Positions 8,862 to 25,846 of a DNA stretch of 47,389 bases are shown here, in pieces. Position numbers and translations under genes: made by a program. Positions within the stretch are counted from its first letter, which is position 1. Every line of letters starts with the position of its first letter. Below the pieces are notes generated by a model that was given only the letters and a program-made list of their open reading frames with translations, did not search any database and was not told the origin of the DNA. The stretch is from Escherichia coli (GTDB lineage: Bacteria > Pseudomonadota > Gammaproteobacteria > Enterobacterales > Enterobacteriaceae): assembly GCF_036507355.1 (NCBI RefSeq), contig NZ_AP027879.1. The stretch is one strand, 5' to 3'.

Positions 8862-9918
8862 GGCTTTGTTGAATAAATCGAACTTTTGCTGAGTTGAAGG
8901 ATCAGATCACGCATCTTCCCGACAACGCAGACCATTCCGTGGCAAAGCAAAAGTTCAAAATAACCAACTGGCCCACCTACAATAAAGCCCTCATCAACCG
9001 TGGCTCCATAACTTTCTGGCTGGATGATGAAGCTATTCAGGCCTGGTATGAGTCGGCAACGCCTTCATCACGGGGAAGACCTCAGCGCTATTCTGATCTC
9101 GCCATCACCACCGTTCTGGTCATTAAACGCGTGTTCAGGTTGACCCTGCGGGCTGCACAGGGTTTTATTGATTCCATTTTTACACTGATGAATGTTCCGT
9201 TGCGCTGCCCGGATTACACCAGTGTCAGCAAGCGCGCAAAGTCGGTTAATGTCAGTTTCAAAACGTTCACCCGGGGTGAAATCGCGCATCTGGTGATTGA
9301 TTCCACCGGGCTGAAGGTCTTTGGTGAAGGCGAATGGAAAGTCAAAAAGCATGGCCAGGAACGCCGTCGTATATGGCGAAAGTTGCATCTGGCAGTTGAC
9401 AGCAACACACATGAAATCATCTGTGCAAACCTGTCGCTGAACAATGTGACGGACTCAGAAGCCTTCCCGGGTCTTATCCGGCAGACTCACAGAAAAATCA
9501 GGGCAGCATCGGCAGACGGCGCTTACGACACCCAACTCTGTCACGATGAACTGCGGCGTAAGAAAATCAGCGCGCTTATCCCGCCCCGAAAAGGCGCGGG
9601 TTACTGGCCCGGTGAATATGCAGACCGTAACCGTGCTGTTGCGAATCAGCGGCTGACCGGGAGTAATGCGCGGTGGAAATGGACAACAGATTACAACCGT
9701 CGCTCGATAGCGGAAACGGCGATGTACCGGGTAAAACAGCTGTTCGGAGGTTCACTGACACTGCGTGACTACGATGGTCAGGTTGCAGAGGCTATGGCCC
9801 TGGTACGAGCGCTGAACAAAATGACGAAAGCAGGTATGCCTGAAAGCGTGCGTATTGCCTGAAAACACAACCCGCTACGGGGGAGACTTACCCGAAATCT
9901 GATTTATTCAACAAAGCC
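8862..9918 (+). mobile_element. IS903-group insertion sequence (IS5 family), complete, 1057 bp
   Basis: 18-bp terminal inverted repeats GGCTTTGTTGAATAAATC; length matches IS903. Confidence 0.85.
8939..9862 (+). CDS. tnpA: IS903 transposase, 307 aa
   Basis: GTG start at VAKQKFKITNW; DDE transposase of the IS5 family. Confidence 0.85.
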   Translation: MAKQKFKITNWPTYNKALINRGSITFWLDDEAIQAWYESATPSSRGRPQRYSDLAITTVLVIKRVFRLTLRAAQGFIDSIFTLMNVPLRCPDYTSVSKRAKSVNVSFKTFTRGEIAHLVIDSTGLKVFGEGEWKVKKHGQERRRIWRKLHLAVDSNTHEIICANLSLNNVTDSEAFPGLIRQTHRKIRAASADGAYDTQLCHDELRRKKISALIPPRKGAGYWPGEYADRNRAVANQRLTGSNARWKWTTDYNRRSIAETAMYRVKQLFGGSLTLRDYDGQVAEAMALVRALNKMTKAGMPESVRIA

Positions 9919-10001: not shown

Positions 10002-10388
10002 TCAGAATTTTTTGTTGAACTTCTTAGGGTCGAAATTCTCACCGATTTTCTTGAAGAATTCTTTATCAATAATGCCGGGACTCTCTGCTTTTTTACTTTC
10101 CTGCACTTCAGGCTCAGACGGTTGTGTATTGTGCAATACACTTTCCGCTGCACCCTTCGCGCTACTCTTATCATGCGTATTGTGCAATACATTTTTTCGG
10201 TTTTGCCGCGTTCTATACAGTGCCATCTCAAGCCCTTTGGCTGTTACCGAAAAGCTGTATTCGCTGTCGAGGATTTCAGCAATTTCATGCCGCGTTAGCC
10301 CTCTGTCCAGCCAGTTCTCGATTTCATTTAGGCGCAATCTGACAGCAGCCGATAAGTTGCGGGGTTTCAGATCTGCTGGTTTATTCAT
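10002..10388 (-). CDS. Hypothetical DNA-binding protein with predicted HTH, 128 aa
   Basis: N-terminal region LDRGLTRHEIAEILD; lysine-rich C-terminus; repeat array directly upstream. Confidence 0.5.
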   Translation of the reverse strand: MNKPADLKPRNLSAAVRLRLNEIENWLDRGLTRHEIAEILDSEYSFSVTAKGLEMALYRTRQNRKNVLHNTHDKSSAKGAAESVLHNTQPSEPEVQESKKAESPGIIDKEFFKKIGENFDPKKFNKKF

Positions 10389-10936: not shown

Positions 10937-11870
10937 GGCTTTGTTGAATAAATCGAACTTTTGCTGAGTTGAAGGATCAGATCACGCATCTTCCCGACAA
11001 CGCAGACCGTTCCGTGGCAAAGCAAAAGTTCAAAATAACCAACTGGCCCACCTACAATAAAGCCCTCATCAACCGTGGCTCCATAACTTTCTGGCTGGAT
11101 GATGAAGCTATTCAGGCCTGGTATGAGTCAGCAACACCTTCTTCACGAGGCAGACCTCAGCGCTATTCTGACCTTGCCATCACGACTGTGCTGGTCATTA
11201 AACGCGTATTCAGGCTGACCCTGCGCGCTGCGCAGGGCTTTATTGATTCCATTTTTTCTCTGATGAACGTTCCGCTACGCTGCCCGGATTACAGCTGTGT
11301 CAGCAGGCGGGCAAAGTCGGTTAACGTCAGTTTCAAAACGTTCACCCGGGGTGAAATCGCGCATCTGGTGATTGATTCCACCGGGCTGAAGGTCTTTGGT
11401 GAAGGCGAGTGGAAAGTCAAAAAGCATGGCCAGGAACGCCGTCGTATATGGCGAAAGTTGCATCTGGCAGTTGACAGCAACACACATGAAATCATCTGTG
11501 CAGACCTGTCGCTGAACAATGTGACGGACTCAGAAGCCTTCCCGGGTCTTATCCGGCAGACTCACAGAAAAATCAGGGCAGCATCGGCAGACGGCGCTTA
11601 CGACACCCGGCTCTGTCACGATGAACTGCGGCGTAAGAAAATCAGCGCGCTTATCCCTCCCCGAAAAGGTGCGGGTTACTGGCCCGGTGAATATGCAGAC
11701 CGTAACCGTGCAGTGGCTAATCAGCGAATGACCGGGAGTAATGCGCGGTGGAAATGGACAACAGATTACAACCGTCGCTCGATAGCGGAAACGGCGATGT
11801 ACCGGGTAAAACAGCTGTTCGGGGGTTCACTGACGCTGCGTGACTACGATGGTCAGGTTGCGGAGGCTAT
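10937..11870 (+). mobile_element. Second IS903-group copy, 3'-truncated, lacks right IR
   Basis: Left IR intact; homology ends near 11870 where the Tn5393-type IR begins; several aa differences from copy 1. Confidence 0.75.
11014..11870 (+). pseudogene. tnpA: IS903-group transposase, 3'-truncated
   Basis: Reading frame runs into Tn5393 IR sequence after aa about 286. Confidence 0.6.
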
Positions 11871-15408: not shown

Positions 15409-15422
15409 TTTGCAACAGTGCC
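15409..15422. repeat. Solo 14-bp IS26/IS6-family terminal repeat (TTTGCAACAGTGCC)
   Basis: Exact match to the IS26 IR with no adjoining IS26 sequence. Confidence 0.4.
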
Positions 15423-19081: not shown

Positions 19082-19901
19082 GGCACTGTTGCAAATAGTC
19101 GGTGGTGATAAACTTATCATCCCCTTTTGCTGATGGAGCTGCACATGAACCCATTCAAAGGCCGGCATTTTCAGCGTGACATCATTCTGTGGGCCGTACG
19201 CTGGTACTGCAAATACGGCATCAGTTACCGTGAGCTGCAGGAGATGCTGGCTGAACGCGGAGTGAATGTCGATCACTCCACGATTTACCGCTGGGTTCAG
19301 CGTTATGCGCCTGAAATGGAAAAACGGCTGCGCTGGTACTGGCGTAACCCTTCCGATCTTTGCCCGTGGCACATGGATGAAACCTACGTGAAGGTCAATG
19401 GCCGCTGGGCGTATCTGTACCGGGCCGTCGACAGCCGGGGCCGCACTGTCGATTTTTATCTCTCCTCCCGTCGTAACAGCAAAGCTGCATACCGGTTTCT
19501 GGGTAAAATCCTCAACAACGTGAAGAAGTGGCAGATCCCGCGATTCATCAACACGGATAAAGCGCCCGCCTATGGTCGCGCGCTTGCTCTGCTCAAACGC
19601 GAAGGCCGGTGCCCGTCTGACGTTGAACACCGACAGATTAAGTACCGGAACAACGTGATTGAATGCGATCATGGCAAACTGAAACGGATAATCAACGCCA
19701 CGCTGGGATTTAAATCCATGAAGACGGCTTACGCCACCATCAAAGGTATTGAGGTGATGCGTGCACTACGCAAAGGCCAGGCCTCAGCATTTTATTATGG
19801 TGATCCCCTGGGCGAAATGCGCCTGGTAAGCAGAGTTTTTGAAATGTAAGGCCTTTGAATAAGACAAAAGGCTGCCTCATCGCTAACTTTGCAACAGTGC
19901 C
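19082..19901 (+). mobile_element. IS26, complete (copy b)
   Basis: 14-bp IRs, 820 bp. Confidence 0.95.
19145..19849 (+). CDS. tnp26: IS26 transposase Tnp26, N at position 184
   Basis: Identical protein to copy a. Confidence 0.95.
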   Translation: MNPFKGRHFQRDIILWAVRWYCKYGISYRELQEMLAERGVNVDHSTIYRWVQRYAPEMEKRLRWYWRNPSDLCPWHMDETYVKVNGRWAYLYRAVDSRGRTVDFYLSSRRNSKAAYRFLGKILNNVKKWQIPRFINTDKAPAYGRALALLKREGRCPSDVEHRQIKYRNNVIECDHGKLKRIINATLGFKSMKTAYATIKGIEVMRALRKGQASAFYYGDPLGEMRLVSRVFEM

Positions 19902-20600
19902 GTTTATTCTTCCTATACGTGCCGCGTTCCAGGCGGCGACTATGAGGGCTATGTCGATGCCCATGTGCGCCGGCTGGAGGCGCTACGCCGGGCCGGTATC
20001 GTCGAGCGGATCGACGCCGACCAATGGCGCATCCCCGATGATCTGGTCAGCCGTGCCGCCGCCCATGACGCCGGCCGAGACAGTCAGGCCAGCGTTCGCG
20101 TCCTTTCCCCGGTCGATCTGAACAAACAGATCGGATCGGACGGCGCGACCTGGCTGGACCGGCGGCTGATCCACGGCGAGACGGCCGACCTTGCGCCAAC
20201 CGGCTTCGGGCAACAAGTCCGCGAAGCCATGGACCAGCGCCGCGAGCACCATATCGAACAGGGCGACGCCACCCGCAGCCGGGACAGCCGCGTCTTCTAC
20301 CGGCGCAACCTTCTCGCCATCCTGCGGGAGCGCGAGGTAGCCGGCGTCGGATCGGATATGGCTTTGAGTAAGGGCCTGCCGTTCCGCGCCGCCACGGACG
20401 GCGAGAGCGTCAGCGGCAAGTTTACCGGAACCGTGCATCTATCGAGCGGCAAGTTCGCCGTGGTCGAGAAATCCCATGAGTTCACCCTTGTCCCGTGGCG
20501 GCCGATCATCGACCGCCAACTCGGCCGCGAGGTTATGGGCATCGTGCAGGGCGGGTCGGTGTCGTGGCAGTTAGGGCGGCAGAGGGGGCTGGAACGCTGA
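19902..20600 (+). pseudogene. Relaxase-like (VirD2-type) C-terminal fragment, as seen upstream of floR
   Basis: Frame is open from the IS26 boundary; no intact start; GC-rich. Confidence 0.4.
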
Positions 20601-20816
20601 GTGCGCCCATGCCGCATTGCGAAGCAAAAGATAATCGGATAAAATGTAGCAATTCATATTCGTAAGCGTGGAGTAATCAGATGGGAAATTCCAAGTCAGC
20701 AGACAAGTAAGCCGCAACAACCAGTATTGTTGTTGCGGCGCTCTGTAAGGCTAGTCTCATCTGATTGCTGACGAGCAGACGTCGCCCGGTATTCCTTAAT
20801 CGAGGGTTGATTCGTC

Positions 20817-22031
20817 ATGACCACCACACGCCCCGCGTGGGCCTATACGCTGCCGGCAGCACTGCTGCTGATGGCTCCTTTCGACATCCTCGCTTCACTG
20901 GCGATGGATATTTATCTCCCTGTCGTTCCAGCGATGCCCGGCATCCTGAACACGACGCCCGCTATGATCCAACTCACGTTGAGCCTCTATATGGTGATGC
21001 TCGGCGTGGGCCAGGTGATTTTTGGTCCGCTCTCAGACAGAATCGGGCGACGGCCAATTCTACTTGCGGGCGCAACGGCTTTCGTCATTGCGTCTCTGGG
21101 AGCAGCTTGGTCTTCAACTGCACCGGCCTTTGTCGCTTTCCGTCTACTTCAAGCAGTGGGCGCGTCGGCCATGCTGGTGGCGACGTTCGCGACGGTTCGC
21201 GACGTTTATGCCAACCGTCCTGAGGGTGTCGTCATCTACGGCCTTTTCAGTTCGATTCTGGCGTTCGTGCCTGCGCTCGGCCCTATCGCCGGAGCATTGA
21301 TCGGCGAGTTCTTGGGATGGCAGGCGATATTCATTACTTTGGCTATACTGGCGATGCTCGCACTCCTAAATGCGGGTTTCAGGTGGCACGAAACCCGCCC
21401 TCTGGATCAAGTCAAGACGCGCCGATCTGTCTTGCCGATCTTCGCGAGTCCGGCTTTTTGGGTTTACACTGTCGGCTTTAGCGCCGGTATGGGCACCTAC
21501 TTCGTCTTCTTCTCGACGGCTACCCGTGTGCTCATAGGCCAAGCGGAATATTCCGAGATCGGATTCAGCTTTGCCTTCGCCACTGTCGCGCTTGTAATGA
21601 TCGTGACAGCCCGTTTCGCGAAGTCCTTTGTCGCCAGATGGGGCATCGCAGGATGCGTGGCGCGTGGGATGGCGTTGCTTGTTTGCGGAGCGGTCCTGTT
21701 GGGGATCGGCGAACTTTACGGCTCGCCGTCATTCCTCACCTTCATCCTACCGATGTGGGTTGTCGCGGTCGGTATTGTCTTCACGGTGTCCGTTACCGCG
21801 AACGGCGCTTTGGCAGAGTTCGACGACATCGCGGGATCAGCGGTCGCGTTCTACTTCTGCGTTCAAAGCCTGATAGTCAGCATTGTCGGGACATTGGCGG
21901 TGGCACTTTTAAACGGTGACACAGCGTGGCCCGTGATCTGTTACGCCACGGCGATGGCGGTACTGGTTTCGTTGGGGCTGGTGCTCCTTCGGCTCCGTGG
22001 GGCTGCCACCGAGAAGTCGCCAGTCGTCTAA
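20817..22031 (+). CDS. floR: Florfenicol/chloramphenicol MFS exporter FloR
   Basis: 404 aa starting MTTTRPAWAYTLPAALLLMAPFDIL; 12-TM MFS. Confidence 0.95.
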   Translation: MTTTRPAWAYTLPAALLLMAPFDILASLAMDIYLPVVPAMPGILNTTPAMIQLTLSLYMVMLGVGQVIFGPLSDRIGRRPILLAGATAFVIASLGAAWSSTAPAFVAFRLLQAVGASAMLVATFATVRDVYANRPEGVVIYGLFSSILAFVPALGPIAGALIGEFLGWQAIFITLAILAMLALLNAGFRWHETRPLDQVKTRRSVLPIFASPAFWVYTVGFSAGMGTYFVFFSTATRVLIGQAEYSEIGFSFAFATVALVMIVTARFAKSFVARWGIAGCVARGMALLVCGAVLLGIGELYGSPSFLTFILPMWVVAVGIVFTVSVTANGALAEFDDIAGSAVAFYFCVQSLIVSIVGTLAVALLNGDTAWPVICYATAMAVLVSLGLVLLRLRGAATEKSPVV

Positions 22032-22058
22032 CCGACGACTGGTAGCAGGCCCGCTCCG

Positions 22059-22364
22059 ATGCGGCGCACTAACCATCGAAACCTCGTGAATGTCGGTATC
22101 CTGTCTGGCAGGATACCGCTCATTTCCCTTGTTCAGTTCATCGCCGTCGCCGAGCATCTGAATTTTCGGCATGCGGCCAAGGCACTTGGTATCAGCCAGT
22201 CGAGCGTCAGCGCGCGTGTGAAAGCGCTGGAGGATAACCTTGGTGTCCTGCTATTTGAGCGCCATGCGCGGGGCGTTCGGCTAACAGACGCAGGCAGGCA
22301 CTTCATGGAGCGTGTCACGGCGGGTGTCGATCAACTCGATCACGCAGTGAAGACCGCGGAGTGA
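22059..22364 (+). pseudogene. lysR: LysR-family regulator, N-terminal HTH fragment
   Basis: 101 aa with HTH region only; effector domain missing. Confidence 0.6.
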
Positions 22365-22369
22365 CGGGC

Positions 22370-24193
22370 ACTGGCTGGCAATGTCTAGCAACGGCAGGCA
22401 TTTCGGCTGAGGGTAAAAGAACTTTCCGCTAAGCGATAGACTGTATGTAAACACAGTATTGCAAGGACGCGGAACATGCCTCATGTGGCGGCCAGGACGG
22501 CCAGCCGGGATCGGGATACTGGTCGTTACCAGAGCCACCGACCCGAGCAAACCCTTCTCTATCAGATCGTTGACGAGTATTACCCGGCATTCGCTGCGCT
22601 TATGGCAGAGCAGGGAAAGGAATTGCCGGGCTATGTGCAACGGGAATTTGAAGAATTTCTCCAATGCGGGCGGCTGGAGCATGGCTTTCTACGGGTTCGC
22701 TGCGAGTCTTGCCACGCCGAGCACCTGGTCGCTTTCAGCTGTAAGCGTCGCGGTTTCTGCCCGAGCTGTGGGGCGCGGCGGATGGCCGAAAGTGCCGCCT
22801 TGCTGGTTGATGAAGTACTGCCTGAACAACCCATGCGTCAGTGGGTGTTGAGCTTCCCGTTTCAGCTGCGTTTCCTGTTTGCCAGCCGGCCCGAGATCAT
22901 GGGGTGGGTGCTGGGCATCGTTTACCGCGTCATTGCCACGCACCTGGTCAAGAAAGCGGGCCATACCCACCAAGTGGCCAAGACGGGCGCGGTCACCCTG
23001 ATCCAGCGTTTTGGATCGGCGCTCAATCTGAATGTTCACTTCCACATGCTGTTTCTCGACGGTGTGTATGTCGAGCAATCCCACGGCTCAGCGCGTTTCC
23101 GCTGGGTCAAGGCGCCGACCAGCCCAGAGCTCACCCAGCTGACGCACACCATCGCCCACCGGGTGGGTCGCTATCTGGAACGGCAAGGCCTGCTGGAACG
23201 GGATGTCGAAAACAGCTATCTGGCCTCGGATGCGGTGGATGACGACCCGATGACACCCCTGCTGGGGCACTCGATCACTTACCGTATCGCTGTCGGTTCA
23301 CAGGCGGGGCGAAAGGTGTTCACTTTGCAAACTCTGCCGACCAGTGGTGATCCGTTCGGTGACGGGATTGGCAAGGTAGCCGGGTCCAGCCTGCACGCCG
23401 GCGTGGCGGCCAGGGCCGATGAACGCAAGAAGCTCGAACGGCTGTGCCGGTACATCAGCCGCCCGGCGGTATCCGAGAAGCGGCTGTCGTTAACACGAGG
23501 CGGCAACGTGCGCTACCAGCTCAAGACGCCGTACCGGGACGGCACCACGCACGTCATTTTCGAACCATTGGATTTCATTGCAAGGCTGGCCGCCCTGGTA
23601 CCGAAGCCCAGAGTCAACCTAACCCGCTTCCACGGGGTGTTCGCACCCAACAGTCGGCACCGGGCGTTGGTCACGCCGGCAAAACGGGGCAGGGGCAACA
23701 AGGTCAGGGTGGCTGATGAACCGGCAACACCAGCACAACGGCGAGCGTCGATGACATGGGCGCAACGGCTCAAGCGTGTTTTCAATATCGACATCGAGAC
23801 CTGCAGCGGCTGCGGCGGCGCCATGAAAGTCATCGCCTGCATTGAAGACCCTATAGTGATCAAGCAGATCCTTGATCACCTGAAGCACAAAGCCGAAACC
23901 AGCGGGACCAGGGCGTTACCCGAAAGCCGGGCGCCACCGGCTGAGCTGCTCCTGGGTCTGTTTGACTGACGAGCCTGAAGGCCAACGATACCAATCAAAA
24001 TGCTGCGTTCACAGCGCCGCGGCAGGGATCCGCCGTGCTGGTTGTCGGAAAAGGAGCCGCTAGTGGGAAAGAGGAGGGTAAATTTTCAGCGTTGCTGGCT
24101 CCCCGTCAGCCGGATTGGGTTGCATCGCAGGGGTGTCGAAAGAGTCAACTGCGGTCCAAAGCTGTTGGACTTGGGTGAAAAGGGCGTTTATTC
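22370..24193 (+). mobile_element. ISCR2 (IS91-like rolling-circle element); boundaries approximate
   Basis: Contains the ISCR2 transposase; right side ends at an IS26 fragment. Confidence 0.5.
22476..23969 (+). CDS. ISCR2 rolling-circle transposase
   Basis: 497 aa with HUH/zinc-binding motifs (CESCHAEHLVAFSCKRRGFCPSCGARRM). Confidence 0.9.
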   Translation: MPHVAARTASRDRDTGRYQSHRPEQTLLYQIVDEYYPAFAALMAEQGKELPGYVQREFEEFLQCGRLEHGFLRVRCESCHAEHLVAFSCKRRGFCPSCGARRMAESAALLVDEVLPEQPMRQWVLSFPFQLRFLFASRPEIMGWVLGIVYRVIATHLVKKAGHTHQVAKTGAVTLIQRFGSALNLNVHFHMLFLDGVYVEQSHGSARFRWVKAPTSPELTQLTHTIAHRVGRYLERQGLLERDVENSYLASDAVDDDPMTPLLGHSITYRIAVGSQAGRKVFTLQTLPTSGDPFGDGIGKVAGSSLHAGVAARADERKKLERLCRYISRPAVSEKRLSLTRGGNVRYQLKTPYRDGTTHVIFEPLDFIARLAALVPKPRVNLTRFHGVFAPNSRHRALVTPAKRGRGNKVRVADEPATPAQRRASMTWAQRLKRVFNIDIETCSGCGGAMKVIACIEDPIVIKQILDHLKHKAETSGTRALPESRAPPAELLLGLFD

Positions 24194-24447
24194 GGCACTG
24201 TTGCAAATAGTCGGTGGTGATAAACTTATCATCCCCTTTTGCTGATGGAGCTGCACATGAACCCATTCAAAGGCCGGCATTTTCAGCGTGACATCATTCT
24301 GTGGGCCGTACGCTGGTACTGCAAATACGGCATCAGTTACCGTGAGCTGCAGGAGATGCTGGCTGAACGCGGAGTGAATGTCGATCACTCCACGATTTAC
24401 CGCTGGGTTCAGCGTTATGCGCCTGAAATGGAAAAACGGCTGCGCTG
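24194..24447 (+). mobile_element. IS26 fragment (first about 254 bp including IRL and tnp 5' end)
   Basis: Identical to the IS26 left end; interrupted by inverted complete IS26 copy c. Confidence 0.8.
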
Positions 24448-24448
24448 G

Positions 24449-25268
24449 GGCACTGTTGCAAAGTTAGCGATGAGGCAGCCTTTTGTCTTATTCAAAGGCC
24501 TTACATTTCAAAAACTCTGCTTACCAGGCGCATTTCGCCCAGGGGATCACCATAATAAAATGCTGAGGCCTGGCCTTTGCGTAGTGCACGCATCACCTCA
24601 ATACCTTTGATGGTGGCGTAAGCCGTCTTCATGGATTTAAATCCCAGCGTGGCGTTGATTATCCGTTTCAGTTTGCCATGATCGCATTCAATCACGTTGT
24701 TCCGGTACTTAATCTGTCGGTGTTCAACGTCAGACGGGCACCGGCCTTCGCGTTTGAGCAGAGCAAGCGCGCGACCATAGGCGGGCGCTTTATCCGTGTT
24801 GATGAATCGTGGGATCTGCCACTTCTTCACGTTGTTGAGGATTTTACCCAGAAACCGGTATGCAGCTTTGCTGTTACGACGGGAGGAGAGATAAAAATCG
24901 ACAGTGCGGCCCCGGCTGTCGACGGCCCGGTACAGATACGCCCAGCGGCCATTGACCTTCACGTAGGTTTCATCCATGTGCCACGGGCAAAGATCGGAAG
25001 GGTTACGCCAGTACCAGCGCAGCCGTTTTTCCATTTCAGGCGCATAACGCTGAACCCAGCGGTAAATCGTGGAGTGATCGACATTCACTCCGCGTTCAGC
25101 CAGCATCTCCTGCAGCTCACGGTAACTGATGCCGTATTTGCAGTACCAGCGTACGGCCCACAGAATGATGTCACGCTGAAAATGCCGGCCTTTGAATGGG
25201 TTCATGTGCAGCTCCATCAGCAAAAGGGGATGATAAGTTTATCACCACCGACTATTTGCAACAGTGCC
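24449..25268 (-). mobile_element. IS26, complete (copy c)
   Basis: 14-bp IRs, 820 bp. Confidence 0.95.
24501..25205 (-). CDS. tnp26: IS26 transposase Tnp26, N at position 184
   Basis: Same protein as copies a and b. Confidence 0.95.
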
Positions 25269-25600
25269 CCGGTAACTATCAACTTGAGTCCAACCCGGAA
25301 AGACACGACAAAACGCCACTGGCAGCAGCCATTAGTAACAGGAGTGCACGAGAAGATAGATTAAGAGGTCTTGAAGTAGAGGCCTGACTGCGGCTACACT
25401 GAAAGAACAGTTTTGGTAATGGCGGTCTCGTGAACCCTGTTACCGGGTTAAGCAGTTCCCCAACTGACTTAACCTTCGAACAAACCGCCTCCCCAGGCGG
25501 TTTTTTCGTTTACAGAGCAAGAGATTACGATTCATTGAAAAGGATCTCAAGAAGATCCTTTGTAGATTACTATCAATTAATCTTCCGAACATGACACCAG
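25269..25600 (+). other. ColE1-type replicon remnant (RNAI/RNAII control region); origin proper deleted by IS26
   Basis: Colinear with the pBR322-type ori region from CGGTAACTATC..TTGAGTCCAACCCGG through AAAGGATCTCAAGAAGATCCTTTG. Confidence 0.5.
25407..25506 (+). ncRNA. RNAI-like antisense RNA of the ColE1-type remnant
   Basis: Position matches RNAI in ColE1-type origins; ends in hairpin plus T-run CCGCCTCCCCAGGCGGTTTTTT. Confidence 0.4.
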
Positions 25601-25846
25601 TCACTGTTGATTACGGTTAAACCGCTCCGTAACAGGTTTCCCTCGTATTGGTGACTTGCAGCACCAAAGAAGCAAAAAAGATAAATATATCTACTTATTG
25701 AGAGATGATATATTTATTTCCAAAATGCTACAGATACATCATCATGAAACGGATCACCGCAAACAGGTTACTCGCCTGGGGATTCCCTTTCGACCCGAGC
25801 ATCCGTATGATACTCATGCTCGATTATTATTATTATAGAAGCCCCC

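Follow-up and report, generated by a model that had tools for sequence, protein, structure and literature searches.

The 47,389-nucleotide stretch of Escherichia coli DNA analysed here (contig NZ_AP027879.1 of RefSeq assembly GCF_036507355.1; the window in what follows) carries a chloramphenicol/florfenicol efflux gene, floR, on a segment that also holds the element ISCR2 and is bounded on both sides by the insertion sequence IS26. Between the two IS26 boundaries lie 4,292 bp, which we call the passenger, and the passenger begins and ends with the same 8 bp, GTTTATTC. From left to right, the features of the region are:

19082-19901, + strand: IS26 copy b, complete, 820 bp, the left boundary of the unit, with 14-bp terminal repeats at both ends
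19902-19909: left copy of GTTTATTC, the 8-bp target duplication, directly after the right end of IS26 copy b
19910-19920, + strand: tip of the ISCR2 oriIS end, its last 11 bp (TTCCTATACGT), cut off from the rest of ISCR2 by IS26
19921-20600, + strand: 3' fragment of a relaxase gene (virD2/rlxS, annotated DUF3363), with an open reading frame (ORF) at 19965-20600
20817-22031, + strand: floR, full length by its NCBIfam FloR match
22059-22364, + strand: truncated lysR-family regulator gene, N-terminal helix-turn-helix part only, 101 amino acids
22476-23969, + strand: IS91-like transposase gene of ISCR2 (ISVsa3), intact, 497 amino acids
23970-24185, + strand: non-coding region of ISCR2 toward the oriIS end, continuous with 19910 onward in uninterrupted copies
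24186-24193: right copy of GTTTATTC, the second half of the target duplication, directly before the IS26 left end at 24194
24194-24448, + strand: left-end fragment of a second IS26, 255 bp, an exact match to IS26 positions 1-255
24449-25268, - strand: IS26 copy c, complete and inverted, cutting the right-hand IS26 after its position 255

The floR match scores 893 bits against an NCBIfam cut-off of 700. The relaxase fragment matches the NCBIfam RlxS relaxase profile over positions 442-651 of 654 and is labelled a DUF3363 protein in matching plasmid records; the regulator fragment is labelled LysR family regulator in matching records. For the ISCR2 transposase the NCBIfam model that fits best is ISCR clade Ia (E = 1e-201), with a score of 671 bits, under the cut-off of 925, and the RefSeq name for the identical gene is IS91-like element ISCR2 family transposase. 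Counting the right 8-mer, the ISCR2 non-coding DNA of the passenger spans 224 bp and ends ...GAAAAGGGC-GTTTATTC. The transposase gene of this ISCR2 is intact and its oriIS end is not contiguous with the element, the 11-bp tip at 19910-19920 lying apart from the body of ISCR2, with the passenger and IS26 in between. On the terIS side, the junction of the lysR fragment with ISCR2 is identical to that of other copies.

An earlier note on this DNA had drawn attention to identical 8 bp at 19902-19909 and 24186-24193, each beside an IS26 end, with both IS26 in the same orientation, and a direct reading of the sequence bears this out in every detail. Sequence comparison finds five complete IS26 copies and one fragment in the window. 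Copy b, the sole complete copy on the + strand, has all that defines a true IS26, namely a length of 820 bp, inverted repeats of 14 bp at its ends and the tnp26 ORF at 19127-19849, which matching records label an IS26 family transposase, and the other window copies differ from it, taken as the IS26 reference, by 0-2 nt. The fragment at 24194 opens with GGCACTGTTGCAAATAG and, like copy b, is on the + strand, so that two directly oriented IS26 bound the passenger, one GTTTATTC following an IS26 right end and the other preceding an IS26 left end, which is the geometry of a target-site duplication. GTTTATTC occurs three times in the window, the third copy being at 10379. When the 11 IS26 end flanks were compared as 55 pairs, in either sense, the two GTTTATTC copies were the only matching pair, and 0.0035 matches were expected by chance. 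None of the other IS26 copies in the window has paired 8-bp flanks by this comparison, which argues that their junctions did not arise by simple insertion; deletion, inversion or recombination would account for them.

If the repeat is a target-site duplication, the two ends of the passenger should have been neighbours before IS26 arrived. We rejoined the last 100 bp and the first 100 bp of the passenger with a single copy of the 8-mer and searched a plasmid database of 72,556 records with this 200-nt query. The rejoined junction exists, uninterrupted and at 100% identity, in many IS26-free contexts and is covered to at least 80% in 1,821 plasmid records, so the passenger ends are ancestral neighbours and the 8-mer is there a single-copy target. 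The plasmid pR55 places this target within ISCR2: its ISCR2 ends ...GGGCGTTTATTCTTCCTATACGT and is followed by relaxase sequence different from that of the window, and since the divergence begins after ...GGGCGTTTATTCTTCCTATACGT, the 8-mer lies inside ISCR2, 11 bp from the oriIS tip, and 19910-19920 are the severed ISCR2 tip. The tip is defined empirically from pR55 and its last base is ambiguous. A hairpin upstream of the 8-mer (GTCCAA/TTGGAC) was considered as the cause of target choice and rejected, as it folds no better than shuffled sequence (z = 0.58).

The passenger is on this evidence a circular permutation of the well-known unit composed of ISCR2, relaxase fragment, floR and lysR fragment, opened at GTTTATTC, and the repeated 8 bp are a true target-site duplication made by IS26. 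Two IS26 in direct orientation, one at either boundary, together with a duplicated 8 bp that is uninterrupted elsewhere, are the signature of a copy-in cointegrate; experimentally produced IS26 cointegrates carry a direct IS26 at each boundary and an 8-bp target duplication (Harmer, Moran and Hall 2014, PMC4196232). The earlier note had proposed that IS26 inserted, with an 8-bp duplication, into a circular floR-ISCR2 molecule that was then incorporated at an IS26. The duplication is real, and in topology the passenger corresponds to a circle opened at GTTTATTC, as the roughly 1,800 uninterrupted junctions indicate; the proposed order, in which a free circle is hit by IS26 and then incorporated at an IS26, is not established, as a linear ISCR2-floR-ISCR2 array gives an equal product. 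The same note held that its reading would be refuted if the 8-mer were simply the conserved ISCR2 end and preceded the relaxase fragment in IS26-free floR contexts as well. Both are in fact the case, yet they do not refute the duplication: a true target must exist uninterrupted somewhere, and the proposed test was mis-specified.

Comparison with floR contexts in other plasmids, also suggested by the earlier note, shows the IS26-bounded unit, its boundaries unchanged, in many different settings. Junctions were counted with exact 54-nt queries, built so that any 28-nt seed had to cross the junction; these replaced long IS26-containing queries, with which separate IS26 and ISCR2 pieces were merged into one place. 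Of the plasmid records, 31 have the left junction (IS26 right end / GTTTATTC TTCC...) and 18 the right junction (...GGGC GTTTATTC / IS26 left end), and each of these 18 has the left junction too, with the 4,292-bp spacing in 17. The remaining plasmid, pHS4_3 (locus L007, about 11090-11565), has approximately 261 bp of extra sequence in the 3' part of ISCR2 and a spacing of 4,553 bp. Among the hosts that carry the unit are E. coli, Leclercia adecarboxylata and Aeromonas salmonicida, and the left junction alone is found additionally in Shigella and Citrobacter plasmids. Seven different contexts lie to the left of the unit among the 12 loci compared, and where the passenger is full length it differs from that of the window by 0-7 nt. 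The right-hand IS26, 255 bp long in the window, is complete at the same position in other plasmids.

Comparison of plasmids gives direct evidence for movement of the unit as an IS26-associated element. In the A. salmonicida plasmid pS121-1a (locus L004, 6200-12150) the whole IS26-unit-IS26 structure lies between direct repeats of the 8-bp CTATGGGC, and in three related Aeromonas plasmids the site is empty, with one CTATGGGC and 100% identity. The right side of the window (8-mer, 255-bp fragment, inverted IS26, then sul2-strAB-tetA and onward) is shared with plasmids of E. coli B19 and ES6; the B19 plasmid differs from the window to the left of the unit, which makes the left IS26 a recombination breakpoint. 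The region is an IS26-bounded pseudo-compound transposon with the structure of a translocatable unit, and copy c, which shortened the right-hand IS26, came later and is no part of the original unit. The rest of the right-hand IS26 is absent from the far side of copy c (junction at 24441-24456), and the window holds no partner, direct or inverted, for the 8-bp flank of copy c.

IS26 has used the same 8 bp in another way. In IncC plasmids such as pIMP-PH114 (locus L003, 6195-7041), and in p3_W5-6, it is the left end of IS26, not the right, that abuts GTTTATTC-TTCC, and this opposite-orientation junction is present in at least 21 and fewer than 234 records. Recombination within IS26 keeps the pairing of IS end and flank, and the opposite junctions must therefore stem from a separate transposition that made the same staggered cut. 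The plasmid p3_W5-6 (CP032995; locus L012, 7753-12876) has two inverted IS26 copies, both junctions of the inverted type and GTTTATTC as an inverted repeat; the 3,466 bp between its IS26 copies are flipped and 100% identical to the stretch from IS26 to the target in pUTAK-1-2 (locus L013). This is the textbook outcome of intramolecular replicative transposition of IS26, with inversion, into the same 8 bp. That IS26 struck this 8-mer a second, independent time, and in the reverse orientation, is, in our view, the one mildly new point of this analysis.

It is possible, though we hold it doubtful, that GTTTATTC in the ISCR2 oriIS is a preferred, hot-spot target of IS26, used at least two times independently and once in each orientation, directly in the present unit and inverted in p3_W5-6 and many IncC plasmids, a reading that rests on two documented events. 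The 8-mer lies in the most AT-rich 20-mer (40-45% G+C) of a segment of 60% G+C, and this setting may indicate a local target preference. Our hypothesis is that at least the inverted event started from the IS26 that stands 3,466 bp upstream in the progenitor arrangement, itself a very common one. Were the hot spot real, IS26 would repeatedly disable ISCR2 and take over the mobility of floR at a predictable position; in any case, that these 8 bp were used repeatedly hints, in a way open to testing, at a target preference of IS26.

For the unit itself we think it likely that a single IS26 copy-in event on a circular or tandem-equivalent unit was followed by spread as a translocatable unit. We infer that one copy-in, that is replicative, event would have taken place at GTTTATTC inside the ISCR2 oriIS end, the target being the ISCR2-floR unit as a circle of unit length or in a tandem-equivalent form, and the product IS26-GTTTATTC-[unit]-GTTTATTC-IS26. 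Later spread between replicons could have been by targeted conservative insertion beside other IS26 copies, by copy-in or by homologous recombination, and in the window the right-hand IS26 was subsequently shortened to 255 bp by an inverted IS26. At least three routes could lead to this product: a replicon bearing IS26 might attack a 4,284-bp ISCR2-floR circle in one step (route a); IS26 might insert into one ISCR2 of a linear ISCR2-floR-ISCR2 array, with recombination between the two ISCR2 copies afterwards (route b); or a deletion-type intramolecular event might start from an IS26 3,466 bp upstream, again followed by ISCR2 recombination (route c). The starting arrangement of route c, IS26-hypothetical protein-resolvase-hypothetical protein-ISCR2-virD2-floR, is very common (pUTAK-1-2 is an example), and the inversion in p3_W5-6 is a documented sibling of this route. 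Since the 8-mer is native to every ISCR2 copy, no circle need have existed beforehand, and the three routes would give an identical product, inseparable at the level of sequence.

Several observations weigh against this account. No circle of the unit was observed here, and the primary simple insertion (ISCR2...GTTTATTC-IS26-GTTTATTC-TTCC...) is in no record examined; in pNT1N31-93k, both this insertion and tandem arrays were sought and neither was found. Under route c, hypothetical protein-resolvase DNA should lie to the unit's right; it is present neither in the six loci whose right-hand IS26 is complete (L002, L004-L007 and L015) nor anywhere in the window. In addition, IS26 used GTTTATTC at least one further time independently, and judged by sequence alone this makes two separate events, one per ISCR2 copy, possible.

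That alternative supposes a linear array of ISCR2, relaxase fragment, floR, lysR fragment and ISCR2 in which two separate IS26 events struck the same preferred 8 bp, one in each ISCR2, the 8-mers that flank the passenger then stemming from different events or being native copies. It draws on the presence of GTTTATTC in each ISCR2 as a native sequence and on the opposite-orientation use of the same 8 bp in p3_W5-6 and in the IncC plasmid pIMP-PH114, which suggests a preferred target. We nevertheless consider it unlikely: it requires two events where one is enough, no record has the outer halves attached (ISCR2...GTTTATTC-IS26 upstream or IS26-GTTTATTC-TTCC downstream), and the left junction accompanies all 18 right junctions, in 17 cases at a distance of exactly 4,292 bp.

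The presence of an ISCR2 with an intact transposase gene, and the ISCR2-mediated circles reported in PMC9045152, would also suit an origin of the ends by ISCR2 rolling-circle transposition at oriIS and terIS boundaries, with IS26 merely adjoining. Such an origin is very improbable, given that the true oriIS tip lies 11 bp past the 8-mer, as seen in pR55 and at approximately 1,800 uninterrupted junctions, that IS26 terminal repeats meet both ends to the base and that the left end begins within ISCR2 rather than at terIS. Coincidental identity of unrelated IS26 flanks deserves hardly any credence; an 8-mer is short and the window has a third copy at 10379, but the 0.0035 chance matches expected hold for any of the 55 flank pairs, and chance leaves unexplained why the ends are contiguous in uninterrupted sequences. 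Because IS26 has split the oriIS, we infer that the resident ISCR2 is probably unable to start rolling-circle transposition, and the mobility of floR here should depend on IS26 and not on ISCR2. Excision of the unit by the Tnp26-dependent route should be impaired in the window, since the right-hand IS26 is only 255 bp long and both transposase genes are needed for this route to operate at high frequency (PMC4196232). RecA-dependent recombination across the 255 bp is possible, and the segment might also move inside a larger unit that has IS26 copies a and c, both on the minus strand, as its ends.

The module is already known and widespread and is formed by a well-known mechanism. A '4,292-bp segment' with both of its ends truncated by IS26 was described in a 2017 paper; it has the same length and the same two IS26 boundaries as the window passenger, from which it differs by 7 nt, and the right IS26 is down to 255 bp in the window by comparison. 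That paper mentions neither the 8-bp repeat nor the contiguity of the ends, and our literature searches found no paper in which the 8-mer or its complement appears together with IS26, so the duplication appears to have gone unremarked in the literature so far. Our analysis corrects the description, in that ISCR2 and the relaxase fragment would not have been independently 'truncated by IS26', one IS26 event having split the oriIS instead; the split oriIS and the permuted unit would explain how floR travels in IS26 arrays. The practical value of this is small, and the current understanding of IS26 or ISCR2 is unchanged.

The unit resembles IS26 translocatable units and pseudo-compound transposons (PMC4196232), in which direct IS26 copies bound a resistance segment, the unit stands beside other IS26 in arrays and the copy-in route yields 8-bp duplications. 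It differs from them in that the duplication is on the inner sides of the IS26 copies, where it would mark capture of the passenger and not insertion of a finished unit; pS121-1a, unlike the window, is a case of outer duplication. Arrays of ISCR2-virD2-floR-lysR-ISCR2 are documented (PMC6885840; PMC9045152), and an ISCR2-mediated circular intermediate carrying tet(X4), detected by inverse polymerase chain reaction, is described in PMC9045152, which cites earlier work. These arrays, and IS26-resolvase-ISCR2-virD2-floR arrangements such as that of pUTAK-1-2, have the same genes in the same order as the window unit, but they keep an intact GGGC-GTTTATTC-TTCCTATACG oriIS junction with no IS26 inside oriIS, and their mobility is attributed to ISCR2 or to ISCR2-ISCR2 recombination. 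In p3_W5-6 the 8-bp target is that of the window unit, but IS26 is inverted and the 8-mer is an inverted repeat. Other reports give 'floR-ISCR2-IS26' as an added unit (PMC6769106) and an 'IS26-ISCR2-floR-IS26-Tn3' arrangement (PMC11997318), the latter with the element order of the window, where a truncated Tn3 tnpA lies to the left of copy b.

Some observations concern the surroundings of the unit. The plasmid p3_115106 (locus L009) has the left context of the window (ISKpn19-qnrS1-truncated Tn3-IS26-unit), and its right-hand IS26 lies 120 bp further into ISCR2 (at 11200), a shift consistent with a later IS26-mediated adjacent deletion. In pNT1N31-93k (locus L015, approximately 9060-9092), the IS26 of the unit is preceded on its left by 8 bp (GTCGTTTC) that match the truncated Tn3 junction of the window, and the sequence upstream of these 8 bp differs from it; we take this upstream sequence to be IS1 terminal repeat-like, and an IS1 appears to have removed the Tn3 remnant except for 8 bp. 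Between ISKpn19 and qnrS1 in the window, at 15409-15422, 14 bp (TTTGCAACAGTGCC) match the terminal inverted repeat of IS26 in isolation, with no further adjoining IS26 identity, and may be a remnant of an IS6-family element. Finally, the DNA between copy c and sul2 (25269-25846) begins ccggtaactatcaacttgagtccaacccggaa, which we presume to resemble ColE1-type replication-origin sequence, and a small ColE1-like plasmid may have been the source of the sul2-strAB block.

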